IMG/VR virus record: IMGVR_UViG_3300045988_151382
Direction: 5' to 3' (one strand)
From: a virus
Taxonomy: Duplodnaviria > Heunggongvirae > Uroviricota > Caudoviricetes
Length of the DNA stretch: 48,925 nt
Position 1 is the stretch's first letter, and each line of letters starts with the position of its first letter. The position numbers were made by a program, and so were the translations under genes. Of this stretch, positions 10,719 to 39,000 are shown piece by piece. The notes under the pieces were generated by a model. That model was not told the origin of the DNA. It did not search any database and worked only from the letters and a program-made list of their open reading frames with translations.

Positions 10719-11204
10719 TTAGATAAACTCCTGAGACTGAATATTCTGAGGCTTTAATACTAGCCACGTTCCAGTTGCTTCCGTTATCCAATATGGATAT
10801 GGTTGATCATCAAACATTCGCCATCTGATATCACCCTGAAAGAGAAATTTCTCTTCAAGTAAAGGCTTCTCCTGAAAATGAAACATCATCCTTTCAAGAA
10901 GAGCCATTACCCATTCATATCCAGTATGGTCCTCACAAAAACCACCTAGAAGAAACTTAACCTTAACTTCATCCGTTTCAGGCTGCATTCCTCCTTCCGT
11001 GGGCCTGATAATCACATGAGGAAATTCTGGCGGTTTATCTGGAGATGGTTGTGATTTAGGAGGCAAGTACCCTTTAAATATTGTTGGAACAAACAATTTA
11101 ATATCGCTGTCTGTTTCATCATAAGGAGGCCCCTGCACTAATAAATCATGGAAAACCTCATGTTCCAACCGATTTTTTATTGCATCTATCAAAAGATTAA
11201 TCAA
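10719..11204 (-). CDS. Putative head-tail joining/tail completion protein
   Basis: 161 aa ORF between head and sheath genes. Confidence 0.35.
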   Translation of the reverse strand: MINLLIDAIKNRLEHEVFHDLLVQGPPYDETDSDIKLFVPTIFKGYLPPKSQPSPDKPPEFPHVIIRPTEGGMQPETDEVKVKFLLGGFCEDHTGYEWVMALLERMMFHFQEKPLLEEKFLFQGDIRWRMFDDQPYPYWITEATGTWLVLKPQNIQSQEFI

Positions 11205-11545
11205 ATCGGCATTCCTCTGTTAGTATTAACAGTGAGAGTTATTTCCAATACACCAACATTATCTGATACTTCATCAACAATATAATTTTTACCGTTGATT
11301 TTCATTGACTGGTCTTTGACAGGGAGAACAGGAAAATCTTTTCTTGAAACAAATAATATTATTTGCCCCTGATTTATTCCCTCTGCAAACTCAGCATATG
11401 AGCGTTTATTCCGCTCATGAATAAGGTCTGTATCAATAACGGCAAGGATATCCTTGCCGTCTATGTTATATGTATCGGCAAACTCTTTTTCATTGAGGAA
11501 TATTGCAGAAATATCTTGCGCTATAACCTCTTTGAAGGAGTTCAT
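11201..11545 (-). CDS. Putative head completion protein
   Basis: 114 aa ORF translationally coupled in the head-to-tail connector block. Confidence 0.35.
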   Translation of the reverse strand: MNSFKEVIAQDISAIFLNEKEFADTYNIDGKDILAVIDTDLIHERNKRSYAEFAEGINQGQIILFVSRKDFPVLPVKDQSMKINGKNYIVDEVSDNVGVLEITLTVNTNRGMPI

Positions 11546-11937
11546 TACTTCTTATTACCTTTTTTTTGCGTTGATTTTTTCGAATTACTGGTATCAGAAG
11601 TAGCTACAGATTCAGATGAATCATCAGCAACCATTTCCTCATTGCCGCCATCATCCTCAAACTCAACCTCGAATACACAGCTACCCGCCTCCGTTCGCGT
11701 AATCAACCCCGCGTCCACAGCATCATTAACAGCAGATGCGTATCCATGCTCAAAAGCTAACTTAGCAGCATCATAGCCCCCAGCCGATGCCAAATCACCA
11801 TCCTCTTCGGTGGCAATAGCATGTCCTGACGCAATCAGTTCGGCAATTCTGGAGTTATCCATTAGCCCATTAAGCAAACGGCCCGCTTTTAGCGAGCCGT
11901 GGCTTATCGTATCAATGTTTTTAATCAGTCTGGCCAT
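11545..11937 (-). CDS. Putative head-associated protein with basic C-terminal tail
   Basis: 130 aa acidic ORF ending in KKSTQKKGNKK, immediately after major capsid gene. Confidence 0.35.
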   Translation of the reverse strand: MARLIKNIDTISHGSLKAGRLLNGLMDNSRIAELIASGHAIATEEDGDLASAGGYDAAKLAFEHGYASAVNDAVDAGLITRTEAGSCVFEVEFEDDGGNEEMVADDSSESVATSDTSNSKKSTQKKGNKK

Positions 11938-12981
11938 TTAAACCACCTTAGCCACCAGATAGGCATCAGCCACACCAGGATTAGGCAGTGGAGATGACTT
12001 CATGGCAACATAACGGCCAGCCGGCTTACGAGTTACCCAGGTGTCTGGAACTCGTGGTGACTCAACAATCGTTAGAGTCTTTTCGGCGTCATCTACAAGC
12101 TCTACAGCACCATACAGCATCGTTCCTCGACCAGGAGAGCCAAAGAGGATCTTATCTTCCGGTACTAATGATTCAGGTTTTCCTGTTTTATCATTGCGAA
12201 TAAGTTCGTCGTAACCATAAAAATCGACACCTTCAAGATTGCCATAATGAGTTACGCCTTCTTCTAACTCTTTAGGCTCAATATACCCAAGCTCTTTTCG
12301 GCGATTATCAAGATATTTAGTTACTGCTTCATTTTTAACGAAGGCATCAACAACTTTTGCGCCCATTACGGCAACACGAGGTGTAAAACCTGAAGTTAGT
12401 GATACCCGACGTTTCCAGTTGCGAACATTGACTAACGGATCTGATTTTGCTGCACTCCATAAATCATCACCTGTCAGTTCAAGATATGGTTTATCTCCTT
12501 CCTCTTCAGGCCAAAAATAAACTGTGTCATCCACTCCTTCACCAACAATATCAACCTGCCCCGTAAACAAGACTTGTGCACACATCCATTCTTCACGGCG
12601 GTTAACCATTTCATCAAGCTCAAGCAAATCTTTACCTAATTGCTCGGCGGCTCGTTCTGCTGGCGATTTTGCGTTGTAAATATTCTCACCCGGAAGCCTG
12701 TTTAAAAGCAGCTCGGCTGTTGTTACCAAATCAGGTGCAACAAGTGGTGGCTCCAGAGTTCTCGTTACAAAGCCGCGTCGCTCAACGGTTTTTGAGCCAA
12801 AACCTTTACCAACAAACGGAGCCATAGTACGGCCACCGCGAACAAAATCCAGATCAACTTTCTTTGTATTAAAGGTCTGAACACCAGGAAAAAAGGTACG
12901 AAGAAGAAAACGACGAGCCTTGAAATTCTGAATAACAGGCTCAAGCATCGTACGTCGTTCAAAAATATCAATATTCGGCAT
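11938..12981 (-). CDS. Major capsid protein, lambda gpE-like
   Basis: 347 aa; size and position after decoration protein gene; recalled resemblance to Phage_cap_E family. Confidence 0.7.
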   Translation of the reverse strand: MPNIDIFERRTMLEPVIQNFKARRFLLRTFFPGVQTFNTKKVDLDFVRGGRTMAPFVGKGFGSKTVERRGFVTRTLEPPLVAPDLVTTAELLLNRLPGENIYNAKSPAERAAEQLGKDLLELDEMVNRREEWMCAQVLFTGQVDIVGEGVDDTVYFWPEEEGDKPYLELTGDDLWSAAKSDPLVNVRNWKRRVSLTSGFTPRVAVMGAKVVDAFVKNEAVTKYLDNRRKELGYIEPKELEEGVTHYGNLEGVDFYGYDELIRNDKTGKPESLVPEDKILFGSPGRGTMLYGAVELVDDAEKTLTIVESPRVPDTWVTRKPAGRYVAMKSSPLPNPGVADAYLVAKVV

Positions 12982-13001
12982 AAAAATACGACCTCTTTAT
13001 A

Positions 13002-13385
13002 TTATGCAGATGGATTTTGTTGTGCGGTATTAAGGAATATTCCAACCTTCCGGCAAGCCAGATATACATCGGCAACTTTTGCTGATTCAGGAAGGATAAC
13101 CGCATGTGCATTGAACATTCCGGTCAGCCATGCTGTTCCGACTTGCGCTGAATCAGTCGCATCAATATTGTGTTGAGCGATACAATACGGTTCTTTTGCC
13201 TCCCCTTCACCAGAGAGATTTATTGGCGCCACAGTGACAACATTTGTTGTCTGATCAATACTGACAAAAGCAAGTAACTCACCCCGTTTTACTTTACCGC
13301 TGGCAAGTTTAATACTTGTTGGAATTGCTGGCATACCACCAGAAATAATCAGATTATCTGGTTCAAATGAAAAAGACTCTCGCAT
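13002..13385 (-). CDS. Head decoration protein, lambda gpD-like
   Basis: 127 aa ORF between protease/scaffold and capsid genes. Confidence 0.6.
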   Translation of the reverse strand: MRESFSFEPDNLIISGGMPAIPTSIKLASGKVKRGELLAFVSIDQTTNVVTVAPINLSGEGEAKEPYCIAQHNIDATDSAQVGTAWLTGMFNAHAVILPESAKVADVYLACRKVGIFLNTAQQNPSA

Positions 13386-13394
13386 AAACTCACC

Positions 13395-14483
13395 TTAATT
13401 TTTATCGCGGTTTTTAAATACTGACCCAATAACATTTTTTACTGCTTCAGCCTGTTTGTTGCCGTTGTTTTCTGGTTGATTAACATCAACTGAATCATTC
13501 ACCTCACTTGCGTCTTCTTGCCGTTGATTAAGAAAGTTTTTGTTACGCGCTCGCTCTGCATTCATAATTTCCAAAGCAAGTTCAGCCGCAGAAACTCCTG
13601 TTTTGAATTTTGCATTCTTAACCAGGTCGTCATGACCAGGAATCACGCTATTCTCGATTGTTTCAATGCGCTCGCGTTCTGATTTAACGCCCTCGTCTTT
13701 ACCAGCATTAAAAACCTGATTGTATAATTCTGGATATTTATTTTTTAATTCATCAAGAGTCACAATATCGTCCTCATTTTGTTCATTTGATTCAGTAGAT
13801 AACTCATTTTTATTTTGCGGCAACTTTGCGAGTGAATCAGGTAATTTTGAAAACCTTGATGCTTCAAAAGTTATTCCATTAAGCGAAAGCATCCCTTCCT
13901 TTATAGAAGCGGATAAGCGTATTGGTTTTTCAACTTCGTCAGCAAATCCAAGCTCTACAGCCTCTTCTGCATTTAGCCATGTTTCCTGATCCATTAGTTC
14001 AATTAATTTATCCTCAGAAAGCCCTGTTTTCTCCTTATATGCAGATAAAATACTATTGCGTATCTTATCCATCATCTCAGCAATATCACGCAATTCATCC
14101 GCATCGCCAGAAGCAAATGTCCACGGATTATGGATCATCATCATAGCATTAGATGGGATAATAATTTTATCACCCGCCATTGCAATAATAGTTGCAGCCG
14201 ATGCAGCAATCCCGTCGATATAAACCGTAATATTCGCTTTATGACGCTTTAATGATGAAAGAATAGCTTGAGCAGTAAAAACAGAACCACCATAACTATT
14301 AATTTTTACGTTGATAGTATTTGATGAAATATCCTTTAATTTATTAACTATGTCAGAAGAAGAAACCTCATCAAATTCACCAATATACCCGTAAATTAAA
14401 AGTTCAGCCGGAGAGTCATCTTCACCCGTGCTATTTTTTATTTCCCACCAATTAGGCATCATCAGTCTCCATATTTTGTTCAT
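13395..14483 (-). CDS. Prohead protease (ClpP/S49-like) fused to scaffold domain
   Basis: 362 aa; N-terminal half with SYGGSV...GIAASAATIIAMAGD serine-protease-like motifs, C-terminal half coiled-coil acidic region. Confidence 0.7.
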   Translation of the reverse strand: MNKIWRLMMPNWWEIKNSTGEDDSPAELLIYGYIGEFDEVSSSDIVNKLKDISSNTINVKINSYGGSVFTAQAILSSLKRHKANITVYIDGIAASAATIIAMAGDKIIIPSNAMMMIHNPWTFASGDADELRDIAEMMDKIRNSILSAYKEKTGLSEDKLIELMDQETWLNAEEAVELGFADEVEKPIRLSASIKEGMLSLNGITFEASRFSKLPDSLAKLPQNKNELSTESNEQNEDDIVTLDELKNKYPELYNQVFNAGKDEGVKSERERIETIENSVIPGHDDLVKNAKFKTGVSAAELALEIMNAERARNKNFLNQRQEDASEVNDSVDVNQPENNGNKQAEAVKNVIGSVFKNRDKN

Positions 14484-16026
14484 TTACCTCAGAAACAGGA
14501 GGTGTAATAAGCCCCAACTCACGGCGAGCATTCTCTTCTCTGCCACAGATTTGTGCGGTTTCTTCCCAGTTAAGACCTGACATTTCAGCCGCTTCTTTTT
14601 CACGGGTAGAGAATGTTTCCTCAACACGCAGTTTTGCAGCTTTGACTTCTTTAAGGGGATCTAATTGGCCTTGTGATGGGCCATACCATTGAGCGCCACT
14701 CCATGCAGCGCGATATTCAGGCCCATAAAAAAAACCAGGGGCAATAACACGACCTTTAGCAACGGCTTCGGCCAACCATTCCTCATAGATCGGTTGGCAA
14801 AATGACTGAACCATCCAGTCACGTCGCATACGGAACATTTTCCAGGCTTCAAGTAATGCGGCCCTGCTTGCGCTATAACTTGCTGTAAAATGCTTTACCA
14901 AGAGTTCGTAAGGGAGTTCTAAAGCAGCCCCAATTTGACGGCATATGGCGACAACAAAACCATCAAATGCCGTATTTGGTCGCCCGGGATTTGCTGTATC
15001 TATCGACTCACCTTCACCCAAACTTACTATGGAGCCATTCCCCATTTCTTGGGTGTTATCATCATGGTTATCGATCTGCTCGTACTGAGGGATACCCGAT
15101 TCACCGACTGGCCCATCAGGAGCGTCTGTTTTAATAAAGACAGTAAACATCCCTGACACAACCGCAGCAACCAATTCAGCATCGGTGTATCGTCCTAACT
15201 GCTTCAATGCTTCAATTACAGGAGCAAGGACAGGAACGCCACGGCGTTGCCCAGGCCTTTCAAAATCCTGCATGACATGCAGAATATTTCTTCTTCCTGT
15301 TTTACTCCCATATGCGGGAATACGTTCCCACTTGCGGGTTACAAAACCAGAAGTCCCGGCTGGGTGATGTTTTGCAACCCAGTACGCCACAGGCTCGCTA
15401 AATTCACCAACCTCTACGCCACCGTAAAGATTTGGTATAAAACGATCCTCTGGATTGCAAACACGATCACCTTCAATTAAATAGACGCACAAATCATATA
15501 TAACACCCTTACGCTTAATAACTGGTAGCGCAGCAAATATATCGCCAGATGTTAACGCAGATATTTGGACCAATGATTGCAATTGTCCAAAAGTACACAT
15601 TCTTGATGCATCACAATTTGGAGAATCAGCCCATAATCTAAACTCACGCTCAACATGCTTTTCCCATGCTCGCGCTTCTTCCTGCGTCATCCCCAAGAAA
15701 TCGGCATCAATGTTCGCATTTAGTTTTAAACCGGAACCAACAACGTTTGTCCTGATAGTTTTTATTGCGCCAACAGATAGCGGGTTTCCCATGAAGAGAT
15801 CACGAGAACGCTCACGCAATTTATCTATATTTTTAACAATATCATCATCAGGAGAACCAGCTTTACTAAACCAACCCCTTAATGATTTTTTATGAGTGCT
15901 TGCACCATGACGTGAATATCCAAGGTTATTAATACCTTCAAGTGCTTCTAACCGTTTTCTTGCCAAAGCTCGATTTAATGCCCTCTGAGGTGAAAACGGC
16001 GCAATAACTCGATCAAGAATATTCAT
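14452..16026 (-). CDS. Portal protein, lambda gpB-like
   Basis: 524 aa ORF between gpW-like and protease genes; size and order as lambda A-W-B-C. Confidence 0.7.
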   Translation of the reverse strand: MNILDRVIAPFSPQRALNRALARKRLEALEGINNLGYSRHGASTHKKSLRGWFSKAGSPDDDIVKNIDKLRERSRDLFMGNPLSVGAIKTIRTNVVGSGLKLNANIDADFLGMTQEEARAWEKHVEREFRLWADSPNCDASRMCTFGQLQSLVQISALTSGDIFAALPVIKRKGVIYDLCVYLIEGDRVCNPEDRFIPNLYGGVEVGEFSEPVAYWVAKHHPAGTSGFVTRKWERIPAYGSKTGRRNILHVMQDFERPGQRRGVPVLAPVIEALKQLGRYTDAELVAAVVSGMFTVFIKTDAPDGPVGESGIPQYEQIDNHDDNTQEMGNGSIVSLGEGESIDTANPGRPNTAFDGFVVAICRQIGAALELPYELLVKHFTASYSASRAALLEAWKMFRMRRDWMVQSFCQPIYEEWLAEAVAKGRVIAPGFFYGPEYRAAWSGAQWYGPSQGQLDPLKEVKAAKLRVEETFSTREKEAAEMSGLNWEETAQICGREENARRELGLITPPVSEVNEQNMETDDA

Positions 16027-16262
16027 AAATCTCTTATCACCACTCGTTTAATTCGTGGGCCTCGGCGTACACCTGCTGATAATCTTTCTACTTCATTACG
16101 CCAGTAATCCATCTCTTTTCTGACTTCTGATAAATCCGCACGAGTTAACTGCCGCGTACCAAATTTATATGACTGACCGCCAATAGCAATAGCGCGATAT
16201 GCTTCCCGCCAGACAGATAACATCTCTCTGGCTTCAGTCAGAGAAAATGCTTCATTGTTCAT
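16023..16262 (-). CDS. Head-tail joining protein gpW-like
   Basis: 79 aa ORF between terminase large subunit and portal, as in lambda. Confidence 0.55.
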   Translation of the reverse strand: MNNEAFSLTEAREMLSVWREAYRAIAIGGQSYKFGTRQLTRADLSEVRKEMDYWRNEVERLSAGVRRGPRIKRVVIRDL

Positions 16263-16273
16263 TTATATTTCCT

Positions 16274-18130
16274 CTATATGGTTACGCCTTTACTTATAAC
16301 TCTACGGCGTCTTCTACGTATACCTGACGAGTTCTGCACATACACATTACCTCGCATTTCCTGTTCGGCAAGCCAGTTAAAATTAGGGTTCAGAATTTCC
16401 ATCGCGGCAGTTGCATAGTTACGGCAATCAAGAGGCTCGTTACGCTCGTAGACTTTCACCCACTTTTCTTTTGTCTGCCCATTTTTATATTCAAATATTT
16501 TTTTCTCTGATAATAATCCTTTAAAGTATTCGGTATCATATCCTCTGTCAGAATCTAATGGGAAATGCATATAACCAGGACCAGGATCATGTAGTTTAAT
16601 TCTTGCCATGATGGTCCCTTTACCATCATCAACCCCCAAATTAAACAACATAGCACCCACACGGTTATTATTACTTGGCTTTCCTATAAATGGTAAACCT
16701 ACCCCACCACGCCCCCTGATAGAGTATATTCGCCTTGATTCTCTCAGCTTAGTGAAGCGATATACCTCTGTCGTAAAATGCCCACCAGAGTCAATACAAA
16801 CAGAAGAAATCTGTAATTTTCGACCGTCACGGAATGACCAGCTACGGAGTAAGTATTCATCAAGTTGTTTCCAGACAACATCTTGTGCGGGATCACCTGG
16901 GAATATTTTATATTCTATCCCCCATGACTCCTTACCTTTTCCCCAACCGACCAATTCACAAACTAAATACGTGTCCTGTACGTCAACACCAGCACTTAAC
17001 AATAAAACATCATCTGGTAAAAACTCTTCAAACCTTATTCTGCGTTGCAACAAGTATTCAGGATCGATATCGTCTTTAGCATCCTCTTTCCATGGCTCAC
17101 CCAGCTTAAGGTTAATAAACTCCATTAATCCATTTTTATCGCGGTTTCTGGTTGCTTCCGTAAATTCTTCAACCAGCTCTGACAATGCAACCCACGGGGA
17201 GTAAAGACTGTTAATATGAAAACCAACAATACCTTTAACTCCAGTATGTTCAGCTATCCATACCCCCTTTGCCAACCAATCAACGTCTGGTTTACCAGAT
17301 CCGCGCATAATCCCGCCGCACTCACAGCACTCATATCTGGCCGTTTCCGGTAACGCCTCACCTGAATCGCTCTTATCCCATCTGACTTGCGACCATTTCA
17401 TCACCTGCATGGTGCCACAACATGGGCAAGGAACATGGTAGTAACGCTGATCGGAGAGCTTAAACCACTTGTGGATTTTGCTCGTTTCCTCCAAAACAGG
17501 AGTAGAAACAAAAACTTTCTTACGATTATGAAAGTTGGTAGTACGCTGAATACCTAGTTTTAGTGGGTCGCCCTCCTGCGTCACACCGTAACGATCAATC
17601 TCATCACCTAACAGTATTCGAATTGGCCTGGATGCAAGACCTGCTGGGGAATTAGCACCAACAAGTGCTATATATCCACCAGCGTAATGCTTCATACGTA
17701 TAGTCGTGCTGGACTTTTTGGCTGCACCGCGCCCCTCTTTCCCTTCATGCAGCTTGTGTTTCAAACCAGGGGAATATTTGAACGTCGGATCAATACGCTC
17801 CTTTGAAAAAGCCTCAGCCGCCTCTACCGTTGGATAAATCATCAACTGAGGAGATGGCTCCTGATCTGCAAAGTAACCCATAACATTTAGCTGTAATTCG
17901 GATTTACCAATTTGCGAGCTACATTGCATCACTACTGTTTCTGTATCAGCGTCACCAATAACATCCATTGGTTCACGCAAATATGGCACTCGGCTTGTAC
18001 GCCACGGCCCTGGCTCTGGAGACGTTCCCGGCGCTACATGACGATACTTATCAGCCCATTCGGAAACAGTTAGCCGTGATTTAGGGCGAAGCGCACGGAA
18101 AAAAGCGGTGCTCCATACTGTTTCGCCCAT
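16274..18130 (-). CDS. Terminase large subunit, lambda gpA-like
   Basis: 618 aa; cysteine cluster CPCCG...CCECGG and ATPase-like N-terminus; followed by gpW and portal. Confidence 0.8.
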   Translation of the reverse strand: MGETVWSTAFFRALRPKSRLTVSEWADKYRHVAPGTSPEPGPWRTSRVPYLREPMDVIGDADTETVVMQCSSQIGKSELQLNVMGYFADQEPSPQLMIYPTVEAAEAFSKERIDPTFKYSPGLKHKLHEGKEGRGAAKKSSTTIRMKHYAGGYIALVGANSPAGLASRPIRILLGDEIDRYGVTQEGDPLKLGIQRTTNFHNRKKVFVSTPVLEETSKIHKWFKLSDQRYYHVPCPCCGTMQVMKWSQVRWDKSDSGEALPETARYECCECGGIMRGSGKPDVDWLAKGVWIAEHTGVKGIVGFHINSLYSPWVALSELVEEFTEATRNRDKNGLMEFINLKLGEPWKEDAKDDIDPEYLLQRRIRFEEFLPDDVLLLSAGVDVQDTYLVCELVGWGKGKESWGIEYKIFPGDPAQDVVWKQLDEYLLRSWSFRDGRKLQISSVCIDSGGHFTTEVYRFTKLRESRRIYSIRGRGGVGLPFIGKPSNNNRVGAMLFNLGVDDGKGTIMARIKLHDPGPGYMHFPLDSDRGYDTEYFKGLLSEKKIFEYKNGQTKEKWVKVYERNEPLDCRNYATAAMEILNPNFNWLAEQEMRGNVYVQNSSGIRRRRRRVISKGVTI

Positions 18131-18135: not shown

Positions 18136-18696
18136 TTATTCTTCCTGCTTAATAAATCGGGATTCCTGGAGCGCCTGAAGCGCAAAATTAATTTCGTCTT
18201 CAATAATGCGTTCGATCTCCCTGGCTGTTTTGCCTTCACAACGGGGAGCTGCTCTTGGAGCAATACTAAATAAGCGGCTACGCAATTCATTAGCTGCCAG
18301 AAATGCATCATCCCTGACCGCATCTTTAGCGATGAGAGAGCCTTCCTTTTCTTCAAATTCAAGGCGTTTCAGCTTTGCCTGATAAATTTTTTCTGCGGTC
18401 TTAGCCTTGTTGAATTGCACCGCAACACCGGAAGTACCACCAGCTAATCCGGCATCATCAGCGGGTAACTCTGGTTGTTCCGAAGATATCCCATGCCCTC
18501 TTTTTCCATTTTCAGCAGATACCTCACGACCAACCTGTCGGCTCGCTTCATAAGCCGCACTGGCTTTATCAAAATCCAGCTTGCCGCTTTTCAGCACTGG
18601 AATGCGACCGGAACGACAGAGCTTCGTAACCATTGCCGGAGAAATACCTTTCCGGCGGGCAAACTCTGACTTACTGACGATGGCCATTACTTGCAA
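18136..18696 (-). CDS. Terminase small subunit, Nu1-like HTH
   Basis: 186 aa ORF directly upstream of the large subunit; N-terminal HTH-like segment KSEFARRKGISPAMVTKL. Confidence 0.55.
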   Translation of the reverse strand: MQVMAIVSKSEFARRKGISPAMVTKLCRSGRIPVLKSGKLDFDKASAAYEASRQVGREVSAENGKRGHGISSEQPELPADDAGLAGGTSGVAVQFNKAKTAEKIYQAKLKRLEFEEKEGSLIAKDAVRDDAFLAANELRSRLFSIAPRAAPRCEGKTAREIERIIEDEINFALQALQESRFIKQEE

Positions 18697-19277
18697 CCAT
18701 TAGCAAGATACTGAACAAATCCCTCATGCGTTTCATGCGCGTCGTGGTACTGACGATAAACATCCAGCAACAATGCAATTTCCATATCCGTCGCGGGAAT
18801 ACGTTCTTTATCAATAGCCAGGTACTTAATTTGAACAACAGGGGAAGAATTATCGTCTTCTTCCTGCGGCTGTTCATCGCTTAACATTTCGTCAAGCTCT
18901 GCATCATTAAACCCAAGCAGATCAATATCAAAATCATCATCCATTAACTCTTTGACTTCTTCGGCCAGAAGCTGCATATCCCAGCCAGCATTTAAGGCCA
19001 GCTTGTTATCTGCAATCCTGTACGCCTTCTTCTGTTTTTCAGAAAGGTTACTCAACCGAATCGCCGGAACTTTATCCATTTCCAGAATTTCGGCTGCTGC
19101 AAGCCGACCATGCCCCGCAATCAGTTCATTCTTTTCATCGATCAGCACAGGATTAGTGAAACCGAACTCACGGATACTGTTCACCAACTGTTCAACCTGC
19201 TCATCTGAATGAGTCCGTGAATTTTTGGCGTATCTGAGCAGCTTACCGACTGGTAAATATTCGATTTTTAGAGCCAT
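18687..19277 (-). CDS. ParB-like nuclease domain protein
   Basis: 196 aa; motif NPVLIDEKNELIAGHGRLAAA characteristic of ParB/Srx N-terminal domain; paralog of 21944..22567. Confidence 0.7.
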   Translation of the reverse strand: MALKIEYLPVGKLLRYAKNSRTHSDEQVEQLVNSIREFGFTNPVLIDEKNELIAGHGRLAAAEILEMDKVPAIRLSNLSEKQKKAYRIADNKLALNAGWDMQLLAEEVKELMDDDFDIDLLGFNDAELDEMLSDEQPQEEDDNSSPVVQIKYLAIDKERIPATDMEIALLLDVYRQYHDAHETHEGFVQYLANGCK

Positions 19278-20570: not shown

Positions 20571-21950
20571 CTACTTAATCAGCGGCCGGAAAGCCGCCAG
20601 CACATCATCAGATCGTCCGATTGTTGAACCACCAGGCAACGGCAACTCAAACTCAAAACGAACAGCTTTCTCCAGACTCGCCCAACTAAGGGAATCATCG
20701 TTAATGACGTGCAAATACCAGCTCTTACAGTTGAATATTGACCGCTTAATCCTGAAACCATGTACACGACACAACTGCTTCACTTCATCATCAGAGTGAA
20801 ACTTCTGGTAAAACCAGTGCCCCTTCCGGTACAACGCGGTAAAACCGTTATGATCAATAAAATAAAGCCGGCTTTTGGAACTCGCCGCTTGTGTTTGCTT
20901 CAGGACTGTTTCCAGCTCTCCACGGCTACGACCAGAAAAGAATATTGACCCACCAGCTTTACACAGGCCTTTCAGAACCGTCAGAACAGACCATTCAGCC
21001 TCGACACTATCGACCGAGTTCAAAACGCTATCGCAAATCACGTAGTCGTAACGCCCTCGCGTTTTTAAGTCGTCCACCAGCGTATCAATCATCCGGTTTG
21101 TTGCGGTCCTATCCAGAGTGTTTCCAGCGCCCTTACGGCGGAAAAGCTCGAGATCATGCAGGTTATATCCCTTTGCCCTGAGCATTCGCGCGTAGTCTCC
21201 CTGCCCCGAACCAAAATCAATTCCTCTTGGCGTCTTGGCAATGATCGGGAGGATCAACGACTCATACAGGTTTGATTTCAGGCTGCCACCATTACGCAAC
21301 CGCATAAGCTGCGCATACGTCTGGATGTATGTTGTTTTCTCCAGATGAGAATACTCAAATACACCATAAGTTTTATTCAGATAACTTTGGTATTTTTCCT
21401 TCTCAACATCAGGGATCACAAACACCGTTAGCGGTGTGCGCGTCATTTTCGCTGCTAATGCATACTGAGCACAGTGAATAACCTCACCAGACTGAGTAGC
21501 AACACAACCACCCCACGGACCATACTTGATAACCAGTTCCGCTATGTTCTTTCGAACATATGCCATTTTCGCGCGCATATTGCCTGAGATCTGGCTTGCC
21601 GATACCTGAACAAAACCATGCTTATCTTCCAGACCGGACACCCTGCAACGCTCATCTCCGCTATCAAAATCCGTTCCGTTATGCAGTTGGTTAAACCGTA
21701 CTTCGTCGTATACCGTCGTTTCACAGGGCAACACATACACCGCAGCACGCGTTATTCCCAACTTACGTAGCGCCTTCGTCCTTTGGTGTCCCGCCACCAG
21801 CAAATCGCCGCGCACTATCAATGGCTTCACAAGCCCCAGCTCCCTGACGCTTTCCGCCAGCCTCGCAAGATCATCCTCACCGATAAAACGCGGGTTATAT
21901 TCCGCGCCGCGTAGGTGCGTTATGTCGTAATTCAGGTGAAGCATCAGCAC
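20571..21950 (-). CDS. ParB-like N-terminal domain fused to class I SAM-dependent methyltransferase domain
   Basis: 459 aa; N-terminal KPLIVRGDLLVAGHQR (ParB-like); C-terminal IDFGSGQGDYARML (GxGxG SAM motif), later acidic and DSV motifs; no DPPY/NPPY motif seen. Confidence 0.6.
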   Translation of the reverse strand: MLMLHLNYDITHLRGAEYNPRFIGEDDLARLAESVRELGLVKPLIVRGDLLVAGHQRTKALRKLGITRAAVYVLPCETTVYDEVRFNQLHNGTDFDSGDERCRVSGLEDKHGFVQVSASQISGNMRAKMAYVRKNIAELVIKYGPWGGCVATQSGEVIHCAQYALAAKMTRTPLTVFVIPDVEKEKYQSYLNKTYGVFEYSHLEKTTYIQTYAQLMRLRNGGSLKSNLYESLILPIIAKTPRGIDFGSGQGDYARMLRAKGYNLHDLELFRRKGAGNTLDRTATNRMIDTLVDDLKTRGRYDYVICDSVLNSVDSVEAEWSVLTVLKGLCKAGGSIFFSGRSRGELETVLKQTQAASSKSRLYFIDHNGFTALYRKGHWFYQKFHSDDEVKQLCRVHGFRIKRSIFNCKSWYLHVINDDSLSWASLEKAVRFEFELPLPGGSTIGRSDDVLAAFRPLIK

Positions 21951-22567
21951 ACCTCCCCAGCCAGCAATGCGGATACAAATCCGATATAGCTGCCATTATC
22001 ATCAACATAACGAGACACCGCGCAGTCAAAACGATCCGCTTCCTCATCCGTTGCCGGGATTTTATGACCTCCAAATGACAGGTACTGAACTTTTACGCCT
22101 GATTTGGCCTCATCCTTCTCAAATGGGATATCCATACCCTCTGTGTCATCGTAGACCGCCGCACTCAATAAGTTATCCAGTTCGCGCTGAGTAAAACCAA
22201 TTGAGTCCAGAGCAAAATCATCGGCCGCAAGATCTGCAAGCTCCGCGCTTAACAACTCTTCATCCCAACCAGCATTCAGCGGAATACGGTTGTCGGCCAG
22301 ACGATATGCCTTCTTCTGATTCTCCGTTAGCCCAGCCAGAACAATGCAGGGAACATCATCCATCCCCAACTGAGTGGCCGCAGCAATTCGACCATGACCA
22401 GCAATTATAACGTTGTTCTCGTCTATCAGGATCGGATTAGTCCATCCGTACTCCTGTATGCTGGCAACAATCTGATCTACCTGCTCCACGGAGTGTGTGC
22501 GAGCGTTCTTTTCATAACCAATCAACACAGAAAGTGGTAAAGAAACCACATTAAGATGTTTTGTCAT
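21944..22567 (-). CDS. ParB-like nuclease domain protein
   Basis: 207 aa; motif NPILIDENNVIIAGHGRIAAA; clear paralog of 18687..19277. Confidence 0.7.
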   Translation of the reverse strand: MTKHLNVVSLPLSVLIGYEKNARTHSVEQVDQIVASIQEYGWTNPILIDENNVIIAGHGRIAAATQLGMDDVPCIVLAGLTENQKKAYRLADNRIPLNAGWDEELLSAELADLAADDFALDSIGFTQRELDNLLSAAVYDDTEGMDIPFEKDEAKSGVKVQYLSFGGHKIPATDEEADRFDCAVSRYVDDNGSYIGFVSALLAGEVC

Positions 22568-23974: not shown

Positions 23975-24175
23975 TTAATGCTCGCGTCGTCCGGCGACAA
24001 CTTCGGATTTGTATTTCAGGTCGCCCAGCAAGAATTGCAGTTTAAGCATCTTTGCCGCCGTGTAGTTTCCTGATTCCACAACCTCTTTCATGAGGTCATA
24101 AACGGCCGCAACATCATCAGCCAGGAACTCTTTGCGTTGCTGCTCAGTCGCACGTTTGAAGGAAATACGCATCAC
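23975..24175 (-). CDS. Hypothetical protein
   Basis: 66 aa ORF overlapping upstream gene by 4 nt. Confidence 0.35.
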   Translation of the reverse strand: MMRISFKRATEQQRKEFLADDVAAVYDLMKEVVESGNYTAAKMLKLQFLLGDLKYKSEVVAGRREH

Positions 24176-24441
24176 TCATCATCTCCTGCCGCACATACAA
24201 CCTCACAAAAAACATCAGCGGAATGTTTCTTTTTGAATGAATGGCGCTCAAAACCGCACTCAATATCAGGCGCAAAAACATCCACCACATACGGTCTTTC
24301 AGAATGTTTGTTTTCCCAACGATAAACCGTAGTGACGTTGAAATGTTTTAACGCTTCACGGTACTCAACGCTGCCCGTCAGGTTTTTTGAGGTCAGGTAT
24401 TGCAGGAGGTTTTTTACTACTTCACGGTCTTGTACTTTCAT
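24172..24441 (-). CDS. Hypothetical protein, first gene after promoter cassette copy 1
   Basis: 89 aa ORF; ATG preceded by GGAG within conserved leader. Confidence 0.45.
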   Translation of the reverse strand: MKVQDREVVKNLLQYLTSKNLTGSVEYREALKHFNVTTVYRWENKHSERPYVVDVFAPDIECGFERHSFKKKHSADVFCEVVCAAGDDE

Positions 24442-24553
24442 CGGGTTATCTCCGGTTTAACCAGGGCGGGTATCGCTCGGTTTCGGGTATAACCATAGGA
24501 AATTTTTTCCCACCTGTAAAGCACTTTTTATATAAATATATAATTATATAATT
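24442..24553 (-). promoter_or_regulatory. Conserved promoter-plus-leader cassette, copy 1
   Basis: In gene orientation: AT-rich motif, TTTACA, 17-nt spacer, TATGGT, then a conserved ~50-nt leader ending GGAGATAACCCGATG; near-identical copies at 32944..33060 and 41984..42096. Confidence 0.55.
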
Positions 24554-25141
24554 CTATGCCACTTGCCAGAGAGCATCATGCAACTGGATACCTCCATTGC
24601 ACTGGTTGCCCCAGCCATGCCAACCATCAGGTAAATCACCGCGAGCAAACAGCTCAATACGAGGAACATCACCTAACAGCCTTACCAGCTTGTCACGAAC
24701 CACATCAGGCTTCCGAGAATGCTCCAGACGAGGCGATGTAAACGACTGAATGATCCCCGCATCAAGGCGGGTCGGCAATTTGCCTTTTACCGCAAACAAG
24801 CAATCTTCACTGTTTGCACGAGTCATATGCCCCATCCCCATCACCAGCTTATCTGGTTGTCGGCTACCACATTTGTTCCATGTGAAGCCCTTCATGGTCA
24901 TAAGCCTGAATCCCCATGCTTTCACCACCAGCAACGCTTCTTCTGGCTGAGTCGGAACCCACCACATGGCCAACAAACACGATTCAGGATTAGCAAGCTG
25001 CCAGACAGGAATACGAGCAATATCCTCAGCTTTCATCGTTGGATACTTAAAACCAGCTCCACGATTCCCATCCTTACACTTATCTTTGTATTCCCAGGGG
25101 GGATCTGCATAAATCAGATTAAACAATGCAATTGCCTCCAT
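24554..25141 (-). CDS. MT-A70 family DNA N6-adenine methyltransferase
   Basis: 195 aa; N-terminal YADPPWEY motif (DPPW catalytic motif of the MT-A70 family). Confidence 0.7.
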   Translation of the reverse strand: MEAIALFNLIYADPPWEYKDKCKDGNRGAGFKYPTMKAEDIARIPVWQLANPESCLLAMWWVPTQPEEALLVVKAWGFRLMTMKGFTWNKCGSRQPDKLVMGMGHMTRANSEDCLFAVKGKLPTRLDAGIIQSFTSPRLEHSRKPDVVRDKLVRLLGDVPRIELFARGDLPDGWHGWGNQCNGGIQLHDALWQVA

Positions 25142-25449
25142 GTTAGTTGTGCCTCCGGCGCTGATCTCCGGCAGTCATAACGCTGGCCAGCTCTACAGCA
25201 GACACAACGAAAAGGGCACTAACCAGACTGATTAATGCCCTTGCCTGTTGTGTGCCGGATATCGCCCGACAACGCTGTTTTGGTAACACGGCTACAGTTC
25301 CGTGCCGCTCCAGCTTTTACCCCTTTGCGGATAACAGGCCCTGCCTGTAACTTAGCCCCACGTTCGCCCGAAATGCGCACCAGGCACGCATAAAGATGAG
25401 CACGAAGGAAGTAACTCCACCGCGCTTATCTTTATGTGTGAGAGTGAAT

Positions 25450-25525
25450 TGGTGGCCCCTACCGGATTTGAACCGATGACCGTGCGATTATGAGTCGCCT
25501 GCTCTAACCACTGAGCTAAGGGGCC
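25450..25525 (-). tRNA. tRNA with CAU anticodon (Met or Ile2/lysidine type), CCA encoded
   Basis: Minus-strand sequence GGCCCCTTAGCTCAGTGGTTAGAGCAGGCGACTCATAATCGC...GGTTCAAATCC...AGGGGCCACCA; 7-bp acceptor stem, D-loop AGCTCAGTGGTTAGAGC, T-loop TTCAAAT. Confidence 0.8.
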
Positions 25526-25663
25526 ATATTTGATCTGTTTGTCTGGTGTGGCGCCGCGCACGAAAATCCCAGCCAATAAATTCAGGATTTTTGGGCGCGG
25601 CGGCATATCAGACAAACATGGTTGATGCGTGCGCCCATGAGAAAAGCGCATAGAATGTTGTAA

Positions 25664-25698
25664 CTATATATTTATATAATTATAGAAATATATATTAC
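25664..25698 (-). promoter_or_regulatory. AT-rich 17-bp-class motif upstream of the tRNA
   Basis: TATATATTTATATAATTATAGAAATATATAT; member of the dispersed ATTATAGATTTATATAA-like motif family. Confidence 0.4.
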
Positions 25699-25904
25699 TT
25701 TGGGCAGTTGATTTCCCATGCCCTGTTATGAGCCAGAATATCTTTCTTTGTCTGGCGGTCCATAACATTGATGTCGTGATCAGTCAGGTAGATGGGCTTT
25801 ACCCAATCACAGGCGGTATCAACCACCACCGGGACGCTTCCACGACTCCCGCAGCTCGCGATCAACATCGTCATCAGCCATATGGTTAACACTCTGCTGT
25901 ACAT
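25695..25904 (-). CDS. Outer-membrane spanin lipoprotein (Rz1-like)
   Basis: 69 aa; signal peptide ending in lipobox LIASC; overlaps the 3-prime end of the Rz-like gene. Confidence 0.6.
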   Translation of the reverse strand: MYSRVLTIWLMTMLIASCGSRGSVPVVVDTACDWVKPIYLTDHDINVMDRQTKKDILAHNRAWEINCPK

Positions 25905-26097
25905 TCCCCACCTCTTTTGTCACTTCTATACGCCGCTCCGCAGTGGCTTTTACAGCGGCTGCATTCTCATTAATGCGCTGCTTTTCAGCTTCATCTTCGG
26001 CCTTTTCTCGCCCCTTCATACGACCAAAACCAAACGCACCGAATGCAACCAATATAACGGTGCCGATAAATGACAAAACGGCTTTCAAACCAGTCAT
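25819..26097 (-). CDS. Inner-membrane spanin (Rz-like)
   Basis: 92 aa; N-terminal TM helix then charged coiled-coil region; directly downstream of endolysin. Confidence 0.6.
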   Translation of the reverse strand: MTGLKAVLSFIGTVILVAFGAFGFGRMKGREKAEDEAEKQRINENAAAVKATAERRIEVTKEVGNVQQSVNHMADDDVDRELRESWKRPGGG

Positions 26098-26636
26098 ACC
26101 ACCACTCGCTCTTTCATCCAGCCGTAGACAAACGACTCATTAGCCTCGCGCTTCTCCGCCAGCTCCAGATAGCGTTCGCCCTGCGTACAGTTCAGCGACG
26201 TCAGCATCACCCGTTCGCCGTCTTTTCCCCGATTCCCAAGATAAGCACGTAGCGCATTAATGGTACGTGGACCGATTCGTCCGTCTGCATCCAAATCGGG
26301 ATACAGCTTCCCGCGCAGGTTGAACACATTCAGCCAGCGTTGAAGCATTTTTGACGCCACTGTTGGCCCCATGTTCACCCCCGTGTCACACAGCTCTGCG
26401 GCAATATCAGAGGATAATGCGGCCACCTGATCAAAGCGTGGTCCGTACCAGTAATCAGCCTCAAGGATTTCCAGTGCCTGTTCGCGGGTTAAATCGCGCA
26501 TATCGCCACGGTATCCATGAGCACGGGCAGTGTTCTGAGTAATGCCCCACTTTGTTGGGCCTCCCTTGTCGTCAGGGTGATCCACATAGCCGCCCTCTTT
26601 TCCAAGAACGCTGTTAAAAATCTCATCTTTGGTCAT
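26094..26636 (-). CDS. Endolysin, GH108-like lysozyme with peptidoglycan-binding domain
   Basis: 180 aa; N-terminal LGKEGGYVDHPDDKGGPTKWGIT motif; lies between holin-like and spanin genes. Confidence 0.65.
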   Translation of the reverse strand: MTKDEIFNSVLGKEGGYVDHPDDKGGPTKWGITQNTARAHGYRGDMRDLTREQALEILEADYWYGPRFDQVAALSSDIAAELCDTGVNMGPTVASKMLQRWLNVFNLRGKLYPDLDADGRIGPRTINALRAYLGNRGKDGERVMLTSLNCTQGERYLELAEKREANESFVYGWMKERVVV

Positions 26637-26919
26637 GATTAAACCCTAATGCGTCAACTATCCGCGCCAGATTGCCCCTGAAATACAGAACAACGATGCA
26701 GATAATCAGATTTCCAATAACCACCAGCCAGTGGGATTCTTGATAAAGACCGAACACATAACGGAAGGGAACATTGGCGTATACAATGACGTAGATATAA
26801 GCCAGAAAGGAAACAAATGGACGATGCCTGGAGTCTTTCCGTCGATAAAGCATCAGCGCCATTACTATTACTGTGCAAAGCACCGCATTAATCAGTGCTG
26901 ACGGGTCACTGCTTACCAT
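26623..26919 (-). CDS. Small membrane protein of the lysis cassette (holin/antiholin candidate)
   Basis: ORF track 26623..26955; internal Met start; three hydrophobic segments. Confidence 0.4.
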   Translation of the reverse strand: MVSSDPSALINAVLCTVIVMALMLYRRKDSRHRPFVSFLAYIYVIVYANVPFRYVFGLYQESHWLVVIGNLIICIVVLYFRGNLARIVDALGFNHDQR

Positions 26920-27301
26920 TTGAACCCCCTCCACGTAAGCGGGAAAGCATTCCAAAGATGCTACCGAGATCCTGGCTGTTTACGAACGTGAGGATTTTAA
27001 TTGTCAATGCAGCCACAATAACCGCACCAAGTGCATCAAGAGGACGATCGTTGTAGCTGGTCCATTTGGCAAGAAATGAGCCAACTAACGGCGCTCCAAT
27101 CACTCCAACAATGAACGATGTAAAGAAATAGCCAATCAGCTTGAGACGGCTAATATTCACCGCTGTAGCAACATAGAAAACAGCGCCAGCAAATGCCCCG
27201 AATACAACGCCGTAATCAATACCAGTTGCAATACCAAAAACGCTGGCCCCCATCAGGCCACCAGCAGCAACGGCCGTACCGGAAATTGGTTCTGCTGACA
27301 T
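26906..27301 (-). CDS. Holin-like membrane protein
   Basis: 131 aa, glycine-rich multi-TM protein at head of lysis cassette, preceded by SD and terminator. Confidence 0.5.
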   Translation of the reverse strand: MSAEPISGTAVAAGGLMGASVFGIATGIDYGVVFGAFAGAVFYVATAVNISRLKLIGYFFTSFIVGVIGAPLVGSFLAKWTSYNDRPLDALGAVIVAALTIKILTFVNSQDLGSIFGMLSRLRGGGSNGKQ

Positions 27302-32943: not shown

Positions 32944-33060
32944 TTTATTCATCAGATTTCTCCGGTTTAACCAGGGCGGGTATCGCTCGGTTTTGGGTAT
33001 AACCTTAGGAAATTTTTTCCCACCTGTAAAGCACTTTTTATATAAATCTATAATTATATA
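32944..33060 (-). promoter_or_regulatory. Conserved promoter-plus-leader cassette, copy 2 (immediately downstream of Q-like gene)
   Basis: Same architecture and about 90 percent identity to copies at 24442..24553 and 41984..42096. Confidence 0.55.
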
Positions 33061-33122
33061 TTTATAGATTTTCCGATATTCCCGGTGCCTACAAATCACC
33101 AAAACAGCTCAAAATGACACTT

Positions 33123-33503: not shown

Positions 33504-33836
33504 TCAGATCTCCCGTATCGTGACGGGATAAAGCGCCTCTACCTGCTTTTTCTTCATGATGTAGACGTCTGTTCGCACACCTTTAGTGTCGACACAACCA
33601 ATAGTCCCATCGTCATAAAACACCATGAAATCAAGTTTATAAACGACACCACCTGGCAGATGAAAAGGCACCTGCATAAGAAACGTCACAACGCGGCCAG
33701 CTTTTCTCAGTAGCTTCAGTTCGCAGTAGTAATCAGCCTCTTTTTTGCTATCAAAAGCGATATCATCGACAACCGTTTTTTTATTGCCATATTTGCTTTT
33801 TCTGGTCGCTGGTTTGCGAAAGCCGGTATATCTCAT
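33504..33836 (-). CDS. DUF1064-like phage protein
   Basis: 110 aa; KYGNKKT...FDS..EA motif recalled from DUF1064. Confidence 0.35.
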   Translation of the reverse strand: MRYTGFRKPATRKSKYGNKKTVVDDIAFDSKKEADYYCELKLLRKAGRVVTFLMQVPFHLPGGVVYKLDFMVFYDDGTIGCVDTKGVRTDVYIMKKKQVEALYPVTIREI

Positions 33837-34237
33837 TTGGTATCCCCTGGTACTTCACCAAGACTAAGATCAAACCCAATTTCGTCTTTAACTGACTGCG
33901 GCAACAGCTCCCACGTCTGCGCACACAAAAATTCATCGGAGCCATAACGCTCAACAAAGCGAGCACAATTACTCAGGGGAGGGTGACGAACGGCAATATG
34001 CGGAGGCACACGCCCACCACTAGGCACAACACCGCGATGATGTGGTGCGCACAACCCAAAGCTATGGAAGTGGCAATTCTCATCAACGCTGCCGTAATCA
34101 GGATCGTGATGCAGCTCCGTCCACAGCTCTGGATTATCAATTTCACGGCCATCAATAATGCAAGCTATGCAACCCACGTGAGTGAGCACCGCTTGTATAT
34201 AAAGTTTCTCTTTCTTCGTTGGTGTACGTCCGTTCAT
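33833..34237 (-). CDS. HNH-type protein resembling P1 Ref
   Basis: 134 aa; GCIACIIDG...HH...CHFHSFGLCAPHH pattern matches the Cys/His arrangement recalled for P1 Ref. Confidence 0.5.
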   Translation of the reverse strand: MNGRTPTKKEKLYIQAVLTHVGCIACIIDGREIDNPELWTELHHDPDYGSVDENCHFHSFGLCAPHHRGVVPSGGRVPPHIAVRHPPLSNCARFVERYGSDEFLCAQTWELLPQSVKDEIGFDLSLGEVPGDTK

Positions 34238-38093: not shown

Positions 38094-38115
38094 AAAAAAG
38101 GCCCCCGAAGGGGCC
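38094..38115 (-). terminator. Rho-independent terminator (minus strand)
   Basis: Stem GGCCCC/GGGGCC with 4-nt loop followed by TTTTTT on the minus strand, just downstream of small ORF 38122..38244. Confidence 0.55.
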
Positions 38116-38121
38116 TAATCG

Positions 38122-38244
38122 CTACTTGCTGCTAATGTTTATCGTCACATTCAGAGCGTTATCAGTAATCTTCCAACCCTCTCCATGTGGCGTAAACAAA
38201 GCTCCAGTAACAACGATAAAAATACACATACAGTATTTTTTCAT
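38122..38244 (-). CDS. Small hydrophobic peptide (about 40 aa)
   Basis: MKKYCMCIFIVVTGALFTPHGEGWKITDNALNVTINISSK from internal Met of ORF 38122..38304; own terminator. Confidence 0.3.
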   Translation of the reverse strand: MKKYCMCIFIVVTGALFTPHGEGWKITDNALNVTINISSK

Positions 38245-38559
38245 TGTATGGCCCTTACAGGCCGTTTCACGGCATCCCCACCGACGAAAACAACGCGAGA
38301 GCAAGCACGGCTGCTTGTGCTTGCATGTACGGCAACGGAGAATCCTCCCCTAAAGTCGGTGCCCGGGTGCGAATCGGCGGGAAGGTCCACAGGTATTTTA
38401 CGATTATTTTAAGATTAGTAATAGGAAAGAAATTAAACGAAAAAACTCGTTTATTTTCACAAAATCAGTAACCTACCCACAATCTGTGAGTTTGCAGGCA
38501 CAACAAGAACCACAATTTTTTGAAGCATAATAGTGGACTATTATTACCTTTTGGGTAAA

Positions 38560-38840
38560 ATTAACTTGCTGCTTGTGCTTGCGTGGTTGTTTATACAACA
38601 ACGTAATGCTGAAAGGACCGCGAATCCGATCAGCACGAAAGAACCGTCCTCAATAGGGCGGTTTTTTTGTTTCTGCCTACCAATAAACCCACGCTATGTG
38701 GTTGTCTCTGTTAAAATCCCGCCGTATTGACATGAATGCGCCATTGGTGGACACTTTCCGAGCCGTAGCAAAATCTACGGTCGGGATTGGAACCCCGTAG
38801 ACACAATGGCGCATACCGCGTTAGCGGTTTTTTTATGCGT
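38560..38840 (+). ncRNA. Candidate regulatory RNA region upstream of the antirepressor operon; two intrinsic terminators
   Basis: Terminators at about 38644..38668 (ACCGTCCT/AGGGCGGT stem then T7) and 38815..38834 (ACCGC/GCGGT stem then T7); no ORF; repeated GATTGGAACC element. Confidence 0.45.
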
Positions 38841-39000
38841 AAAGCACTGCTACACCCAAATTATGGTGGGGCGTGCGGGGGAGTCGTAAGACTCGCCGGT
38901 TCGTCATTGTGTCCGGTAGTTCCAACCCTGCACGTCTCACCACCCAATGATTGGAACCTGACGGTGGTGAGTATCCTTAACCTTTAAGGGAATCATCACA

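Follow-up and report, generated by a model that had tools for sequence, protein, structure and literature searches.

A predicted tRNA-Ile2(CAU) gene beside an MT-A70 methyltransferase gene in the cargo region of an Escherichia coli phage-plasmid

Phage-borne genes for tRNA-Ile2, the tRNA that reads AUA, are well known. In Stx2-converting phages the CAU tRNA gene ileZ, presumably accompanied by argN and argO in the late operon just upstream of stx, is conventionally explained as a supply of tRNA for rare codons. The CAU tRNA of P1-like IncY plasmids is one that we take to be the tRNA-Ile of P1 (trnI). The identity set recognized by IleRS, reportedly defined by Nureki et al. in 1994, consists of A73, C4-G69, U12-A23, C29-G41 and the anticodon loop. 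Mutagenesis indicates that E. coli TilS requires C4-G69 and C5-G68, where tRNA-Met has U4-A69 and A5-U68 (PMC2500205, PMC11947777); the tRNA-Met acetylase TmcA (ac4C) requires C27-G43, C30-G40 and G44 (PMC2500205). Met and Ile2 are misclassified by tRNAscan-SE 2.0 in about 1.2% of genomes (PMC8450103).

Among MT-A70 methyltransferases of phages, M.EcoPA8orf6770P by itself has no GATC-specific DNA activity and acts weakly and non-specifically on DNA or RNA; in complex with PNB-2, which is encoded upstream and co-transcribed, it prefers 16S rRNA in 30S subunits, and its C-terminal tail may matter for formation of the PNB-2 holoenzyme (PMC10810198). The highly similar M.EcoGV methylates GATC when over-produced, and variants that lack PNB-2 exist (PMC10810198).

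The locus described here lies in a window of 48,925 nucleotides, the whole stretch of viral DNA that was analysed. The window is an almost complete genome of a myovirus-type E. coli phage-plasmid of about 49 kb that encodes a contractile tail with P2-like baseplate genes: most of its length aligns at 97-99.7% identity with the 49.9-kb circular E. coli plasmid NZ_CP032259.1, in which PGAP annotates myovirus genes (terminase, portal, capsid, sheath, tube, tape measure and P2-like baseplate), plasmid-backbone genes (RepA, ParA and a RelE/ParE toxin-antitoxin pair) and an XRE-family transcriptional regulator that may be the phage repressor. Yersinia phages vB_YpM_39, 41 and 44 are about 98% identical to the window in the vicinity of the two genes, and this module also occurs in at least 60 plasmids of 47-50 kb in PLSDB, one of them the 48.5-kb plasmid of E. 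coli ATCC 25922; the paper on vB_YpM_HQ103 mentions neither a tRNA nor a methyltransferase. No integrase is annotated in NZ_CP032259.1, a 99%-identical plasmid with a RepA/ParA replicator, and a role of the tRNA as attachment site was rejected on that ground.

On the minus strand, early genes are followed by two holins, a GH108 endolysin, two Rz-like spanins, the tRNA, a non-coding spacer of 308 nt, the MT-A70 gene, small genes, three ParB/Srx-like genes, and the terminase, head and tail genes. The tRNA and the methyltransferase are two independent genes in a cargo region that has the lysis cassette on one side and the packaging and structural genes on the other. A first-pass annotation made from the sequence was right that they are adjacent but had the methyltransferase followed by the tRNA; both are on the minus strand, so that in the sense of transcription the methyltransferase lies downstream of the tRNA, at a distance of 308 nt. 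The features of the locus, with the evidence for each, are:

888-18130, minus strand: AT-rich late structural genes (terminase, portal, head, sheath, tube, tape measure, baseplate); map transferred from NZ_CP032259.1, codon counts, GC profile.
24437-24558, minus strand: repeat of about 120 nt, one of three copies (AT-rich stretch, TTTACA-N17-TATGGT, 5'UTR); self-matches, promoter scan, alignment.
24554-25141, minus strand: MT-A70 family N6-adenine methyltransferase of 195 aa with DPPW at residues 13-16; Pfam, phrog_359, match to M.EcoPA8orf6770P.
25142-25380, minus strand: conserved non-coding leader in the interval between tRNA and methyltransferase; fold, conservation, terminator scan.
25385-25440, minus strand: 25-bp hairpin just 3' of the tRNA; inverted repeat, MFE fold.
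25450-25525, minus strand: predicted tRNA-Ile2 gene with genomic anticodon CAU and an encoded CCA end; ARAGORN, Rfam, identical sequence annotated as tRNA-Ile, table of identity elements.
25536-25618, minus strand: 34-bp imperfect hairpin just 5' of the tRNA; inverted repeat (-49.1 kcal/mol, z = -4.9).
25648-25698, no strand assigned: AT-rich palindromic stretch, inverted partner of 24528-24559; inverted repeat of 32 nt, 88% complementary.
25695-27301, minus strand: lysis cassette of two holins, GH108 endolysin and two Rz-like spanins; Pfam, PHROGs, PGAP annotation of NZ_CP032259.1.

ARAGORN finds exactly one tRNA in the window, the 76-nt gene with anticodon CAT at 25450-25525 that had already been recognized from the sequence, and the Rfam tRNA model scores the same interval at 67 bits (gathering score 29). 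According to ARAGORN, the Rfam alignment and a table of positions, the cloverleaf is intact and canonical, with a CAU anticodon and A37 A38 in the loop. The initial description of a molecule with Ile2-like 5' two-thirds and a different T-arm is borne out by comparison with E. coli ileX: 68 of 76 positions are identical, including positions 1-42 and the 3' acceptor strand, and the eight differences (positions 43, 44, 49, 50, 51, 59, 63 and 65) fall at the last anticodon-stem position, in the variable region and in the T-arm. Pairing of the T-stem is preserved by compensatory changes, G49-C65 being replaced by A-U, U51-A63 by C-G, and C50-G64 by U-G. Within the family to which the gene belongs, only the unpaired positions 26 and 59 vary. 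The phage tRNA has G27.A43 where E. coli tRNA-Ile2 has G27.U43.

The identity elements point to isoleucine. Both TilS determinants (identity elements for which the first-pass annotation had suggested a check) are present, namely C4-G69 and C5-G68; the TmcA determinants are missing, with G27.A43, G30-C40 and C44 in place of C27-G43, C30-G40 and G44; and A73, C4-G69, U12-A23, C29-G41, A37, A38 and the anticodon loop are all as in ileX. PGAP labels the identical 76-nt sequence in NZ_CP032259.1 as tRNA-Ile, as are all of the E. coli matches listed, chromosomal ileX included. Judged by these elements, the tRNA(CAU) at 25450-25525 is almost certainly of the Ile2 isotype, as first supposed. An elongator (or initiator) tRNA-Met that adds AUG-decoding capacity would share the genomic anticodon CAT, and tRNA-Met is the label given by ARAGORN and by the GenBank records of Yersinia phages vB_YpM_39, 41 and 44; the label arises because the anticodon alone is read, and from the isotype check by ARAGORN we retain the anticodon but not the name. 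Such an identity is hardly credible for a molecule that matches E. coli elongator tRNA-Met (metT) at merely 57 of 77 positions, that has the two C-G pairs of the TilS site instead of U4-A69 and A5-U68, that lacks every element required by TmcA, that is tRNA-Ile according to PGAP, and that shows none of the initiator features: the C1xA72 mismatch, the three G-C pairs at 29-31/39-41 and A11-U24 are replaced by G1-C72, A31-U39 and C11-G24.

Its nearest relative, identical at 73 of 76 positions, comes from a P1-like IncY plasmid and is likewise a tRNA(CAU) gene. When 185,579 species-representative genomes were scanned for the exact pattern of the 3' half of the tRNA, the single match was an Escherichia contig; the allele therefore belongs to mobile elements, and in no sampled species is it the chromosomal Ile2. 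Related CAU tRNAs are present in more than 1,000 phage records, ileZ of Stx2 phages among them.

Codon usage was counted in 64 genes mapped from the annotated plasmid NZ_CP032259.1, with the tail-fibre gene excluded (an attempt to restore its ORF by joining the ends of the window was rejected, since the product has 38 stop codons), and compared with 39 annotated genes in a 49-kb segment of the E. coli chromosome. AUA occurs in the element at 16.1 per 1000 codons (25% of Ile codons), versus 3.6 per 1000 (6.3% of Ile codons) in the E. coli sample (odds ratio 4.6, p = 7e-27). The chief consumers of AUA are the late structural genes, which are the AT-rich part of the element (GC 0.37-0.45) and use it at 21.1 per 1000 codons (30% of Ile codons), compared with 10.9 per 1000 in the remaining genes (odds ratio 1.96, p = 6e-6); the claim that AUA is frequent in the AT-rich late genes holds. 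Relative to the E. coli sample, usage is 4.5 times as high in the element and six times as high in the late structural genes, and individual baseplate and tail genes reach 36-62 AUA per 1000 codons. AUA is absent from the major capsid gene and occurs once in the tail tube gene; the codon is avoided in the most abundant virion protein. AGA deviates further from the host than AUA does (12.1 per 1000 in the element versus 1.1 in the E. coli sample), and no phage tRNA matching AGA is found in the window, where ARAGORN detects the CAU tRNA only.

We consider it likely that the locus combines a functional tRNA-Ile2 that adds to the supply for AUA with an independent MT-A70 enzyme, the two being neighbours through a shared cargo slot, with nothing to indicate a joint function. 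A scan of 24100-26200 yields no consensus sigma-70 promoter for the tRNA on the minus strand between the spanin stop codon and the tRNA (a candidate read by hand, TTACAA-N17-TCATGG, fails the -10 rules), and because no consensus promoter precedes it, the tRNA is presumably transcribed by read-through from the lysis operon, the lysis cassette being the likely source of transcription that reaches it. The tRNA would then be released from the longer transcript by RNase P and 3' trimming, possibly with the help of cuts at the long hairpins on either side of it; C34 would be converted to lysidine by host TilS; and host IleRS would charge the tRNA with isoleucine, enabling it to read AUA and providing an extra supply for the codon that the element, and above all its late structural genes, use so much more often than E. 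coli. Help from the phage tRNA in AUA decoding, as originally suggested, is thus a role that we infer, and that is supported, from the enrichment of AUA.

The sequences that surround the tRNA are conserved and highly structured. The 34-bp hairpin on its 5' side has no variable site among 83 in 11 family sequences, and it is present in relatives L004, L015 and L016, being common to relatives that do not have the tRNA. On the 3' side, the 308-nt spacer has a folding energy of -132.9 kcal/mol (z = -6.2), and the leader within it is 88-94% identical to those of relatives while the methyltransferase block is about 75% identical, with compensatory changes in five stem pairs. Within the leader, the terminator scan picks out what looks like a terminator, a long hairpin (25212-25242) with UUUUCGUUGUGU after it. 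Searches with the leader returned only the same phage-plasmid family, and Rfam gave no known RNA family above threshold in the spacer; a rydB-like match at 25144-25199 (22.5 bits versus a gathering score of 50) was rejected as chance, as were meaningless miRNA matches on the hairpin. Two short ORFs of 53 aa and 48 aa within the spacer, inspected by hand, have no third-position substitution bias relative to relatives; they were rejected as genes, and the spacer is therefore treated as non-coding. The entire tRNA-methyltransferase block is bracketed by the inverted repeats 25648-25698 and 24528-24559, of which the former is 78-88% conserved in relatives, and its downstream edge is marked by the copy of the repeat of about 120 nt at 24437-24558, whose end coincides with the ATG of the following gene.

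Three divergent relatives (L004/L088, L015 and L016) retain the hairpin, the leader and the methyltransferase, and the site of the tRNA is filled in them by different inserts. In L015 the same slot contains a second, different Ile2-type tRNA, 86% identical, with C4-G69 and C5-G68 and a non-Watson-Crick A27.C43; this putative tRNA is the best comparative hint of selection for an AUA decoder in this phage type. In the Salmonella relative pAR-0407-1, which has no tRNA in the slot, AUA accounts for 14.8 per 1000 codons of the late genes, about four times the host level. Compared with the 21.1 per 1000 of the element that has the tRNA, this is an odds ratio of 1.44 (p = 0.011) in a single comparison of two elements, and the link between presence of the tRNA and AUA use among relatives is weak. 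As pAR-0407-1 is AUA-rich without the tRNA, the tRNA is evidently dispensable for this phage type.

These comparisons bear on the alternative that the tRNA is an intact Ile2 gene of P1-like origin carried as a passenger in a recombination hot spot, kept by linkage and with little effect on translation. Consistent with a passenger are the diversity of inserts in the slot (a 137-nt RNA, other sequence, a different tRNA or no tRNA at all), the persistence of high AUA use in the tRNA-less relative, the uncompensated AGA codons, and the inverted AT-rich repeats that bracket the block. This is nevertheless unlikely for a gene whose slot holds two different Ile2-type tRNAs, and no other isotype, in two divergent lineages, whose stems are conserved with polymorphism at unpaired sites only, whose isotype recurs in P1-like plasmids and Stx phages, and whose cognate codon, AUA, is the class enriched in the late genes.

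The 137-nt RNA occupies the same slot in relatives and occurs in about 70 other enterobacterial prophage contigs, outside the present window, in which no copy is found at E <= 1. An alignment of 48 distinct sequences has 96.7% of its cells paired, with compensatory changes in 15 of the 36 pairs, a covariation far above that of shuffle and slide controls. The RNA has no match in Rfam, even at E <= 10.

A broader proposal, that the interval from the lysis genes to the methyltransferase is a slot dedicated to small structured RNAs, and that the RNAs in the slot form with the MT-A70 enzyme a swappable module that retunes host translation, strikes us as quite improbable. Under this proposal the slot may be framed by the conserved 34-bp hairpin and the leader with its terminator-like hairpin, and its contents may differ by lineage: the P1-type tRNA-Ile2, the second, unrelated tRNA-Ile2, or the multi-branched 137-nt RNA with its strong covariation.

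The second gene of the pair encodes an MT-A70 family protein, as its DPPW motif (residues 13-16) had indicated: it matches Pfam PF05063 with 82.9 bits (cut-off 23.9, E 3.4e-23) and phrog_359 at 1e-102, its PDB matches are MTA1/MTA9 and METTL3, and RefSeq labels the gene in NZ_CP032259.1 as an MT-A70 family methyltransferase. Over residues 5-177 the protein shares 73% identity with M.EcoPA8orf6770P of phage PA8 (E = 2e-85). By tblastn the window has no homologue of PNB-2 (best E = 0.22), and a PNB-1-like ORF6N domain is found only at 39189-39662, in the immunity region; a PNB-2 or PNB-1 adjoining the methyltransferase was rejected accordingly. By similarity, the enzyme would be of the M.EcoPA8orf6770P/M.EcoGV type without PNB-2, acting on DNA, perhaps at GATC, or on RNA. 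GATC is depleted in the window (observed/expected 0.62), which does not settle the substrate.

With a relative that acts on 16S rRNA in the presence of PNB-2 (PMC10810198), the two genes could be imagined as one translation-retuning cassette in which the tRNA decodes AUA and the methyltransferase modifies 16S rRNA, or the tRNA itself, in favour of phage mRNAs; their position in one block between inverted repeats and the high conservation of the non-coding leader that links them are compatible with such a cassette. Nonetheless, it is highly improbable. The enzyme has no PNB-2 with which to form a holoenzyme and differs in the C-terminal tail that may be needed to form it, and a terminator-like hairpin stands between the two genes. 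Every locus whose methyltransferase is at least 98% identical has the tRNA, but all of these represent one and the same element. At 75-79% protein identity, the tRNA is missing from the covered sequence of 27 of 28 loci, on which evidence a general linkage of methyltransferase and tRNA was rejected; relatives exist that retain the methyltransferase without the tRNA. The adjacency is probably incidental and a meaningful link improbable, the two genes plausibly being neighbours because both occupy a recombination-prone cargo slot.

As an annotation the locus is ordinary and already known, RefSeq having labelled these exact sequences tRNA-Ile and MT-A70 family methyltransferase. The analysis corrects the tRNA-Met label on the gene in the Yersinia phage records, a mis-annotation that also affects many related CAU tRNAs elsewhere among phage records, and it suggests that phage-plasmids of a common E. 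coli family have an AUA decoder of their own, suited to their AUA-rich tail genes. The PNB-2-less methyltransferase is related to an enzyme for which methylation of 16S rRNA and modulation of Stx prophage induction have been reported, and it would be a useful natural comparison for telling DNA from RNA as the substrate of that enzyme family. Practical value is modest, and the 137-nt RNA of the relatives is the most promising lead.

In comparison with the known systems, the methyltransferase resembles M.EcoPA8orf6770P and M.EcoGV of Stx phages in its DPPW active site, its small single-domain size and its origin in a temperate phage, whereas its last 14-30 residues or so are unrelated to those of M.EcoPA8orf6770P and a conserved non-coding leader takes the place upstream that PNB-2 has in Stx phages. 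Like ileZ of the Stx2-converting phages, annotated 'ileZ: tRNA-Ile' (AP012533.1), the tRNA is a phage-borne CAU tRNA; the two are only 84% identical, and unlike the Stx2 phages with argN and argO, the present element has no Arg tRNA. With E. coli tRNA-Ile2 (ileX/ileY), which has lysidine at position 34 and reads AUA, the phage tRNA shares a length of 76 nt, positions 1-42 (the 5' strand of the acceptor stem, the D-arm, and the 5' strand and loop of the anticodon arm), A73, the CCA end and the tested identity positions for TilS and IleRS, but it differs by eight substitutions (A43, C44, A59 and three compensatorily changed T-stem pairs) and is located on a phage-plasmid, whereas ileX and ileY are chromosomal. 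The closest resemblance is to the tRNA(CAU) of P1-like IncY plasmids, which is likewise carried on an E. coli phage-plasmid and likewise has A43, C44 and the T-stem pairs A49-U65 and C51-G63. The two differ at positions 26, 50 and 59, and in setting: the gene of the P1-like plasmid lies upstream of dnaB (ban), near tRNA-Asn and tRNA-Thr genes, whereas the gene described here lies between the lysis genes and the methyltransferase.

The slot occupied by the tRNA-Ile2 (CAU) gene of the window, between the lysis cassette and the MT-A70 methyltransferase gene, is bounded by two conserved elements:

window 25536-25618: imperfect hairpin of 34 bp, upstream of the tRNA
window 25142-25380: non-coding leader, upstream of the methyltransferase

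The hairpin does not vary across 11 family sequences, and relatives without the tRNA also retain it, some of the changes there being compensatory; no U-run follows it, and an RNase III site and a protein-binding palindrome are both possibilities. At 88-94%, conservation of the leader exceeds that of the methyltransferase block (~75%); the leader also shows strong structure (z = -6.2), with a U-rich tract at the end of its long hairpin. In Stx phages, the position taken by this leader encodes PNB-2, the partner subunit of the MT-A70 methyltransferase M.EcoPA8orf6770P.

Relatives carry in the tRNA slot a multi-branched RNA of 137 nt, which is absent from the window. The RNA is also found within long unannotated gaps in several plasmids and in a further ~70 enterobacterial prophage contigs. 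Its occurrences are:

L088 (divergent relative) 33803-33939
L016 (divergent relative) 2244-2380
L015 (divergent relative) 2344-2480
L100 2499-2635
L101 2497-2632
L102 (Serratia plasmid p2) 2486-2622
L103 2478-2613
L107-L174: 68 additional IMG/VR loci

Alignment of 48 distinct sequences gives 96.7% paired cells, with compensatory changes at 15 of the 36 pairs; double-change cells number 149, compared with 45 in shuffles, and slide controls collapse. The RNA has no Rfam match down to E <= 10 and is a candidate for a new RNA family. A short distance upstream of it in the Serratia plasmid, a 127-nt stretch (L102 2234-2360) matches the Rfam tRNA model end to end with 46 bits; ARAGORN calls no tRNA there, and the stretch may represent a tRNA-like gene that is interrupted or unusual in some other way.

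The GenBank records of the Yersinia phages vB_YpM_39, 41 and 44 (OR545053.1, OR545054.1 and OR545055.1) annotate the tRNA (5151-5226 in the Yersinia phage locus L002) as tRNA-Met, a label that is probably wrong; records of other phages apply it to many CAU tRNA genes related to this one. With respect to codon usage, the mismatch of the late genes (window 888-18130) with E. coli is greater for AGA than for AUA, AGA amounting to 12.1 per 1000 codons versus 1.1 in the E. coli sample; despite this, the element has no tRNA-Arg(UCU). GATC is depleted across the window as a whole, with 133 sites where 214 are expected, and among 4-mer palindromes only CTAG ranks lower; GAATTC (1) and CTGCAG (3) are likewise scarce against 9-14 expected for each; this scarcity of palindromes suggests restriction avoidance.

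A repeat of ~120 nt occurs three times in the window, and every copy terminates at the start codon (ATG) of a gene on the minus strand:

24437-24558: phrog_6143 gene (minus strand)
32948-33065: DUF3560/primase-like gene (minus strand)
41980-42100: phrog_8090 gene (minus strand)

The copies contain an AT-rich palindromic stretch and a sigma-70-like TTTACA-N17-TATGGT, and are near-identical in the 5'UTR and Shine-Dalgarno region; the repeat looks like a single regulatory unit reused by three transcription units. The tRNA-methyltransferase block is flanked by AT-rich inverted repeats of 32 nt (24528-24559 and 25648-25679; complementarity 88%), the right-hand copy being a partial version of the AT-rich portion of the 120-nt repeat.

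Between the methyltransferase and the terminase lie three genes with ParB/Srx N-terminal domains:

window 18687-19277
window 20571-21944
window 21944-22567

Fusion to a phage DNA methyltransferase, or a position next to one, is common for ParB-like domains (phrog_498, for example). The two ends of the window (1-857 and 46847-48925) divide the tail-fibre gene, and joining them does not restore its reading frame; therefore, the window either falls slightly short of a complete circle or departs there from plasmid NZ_CP032259.1.

Three RNAs exceed Rfam gathering thresholds and are followed by antirepressor-like genes:

window 38094-38390 (minus strand): ryfA
window 38762-38834 (plus strand): isrK
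window 38859-38947 (plus strand): C4 antisense RNA
window 39189-40373 (plus strand): ORF6N-type and Rha-type antirepressor-like ORFs

Together, these RNAs and ORFs resemble the immI-type antisense-RNA immunity region of P1.
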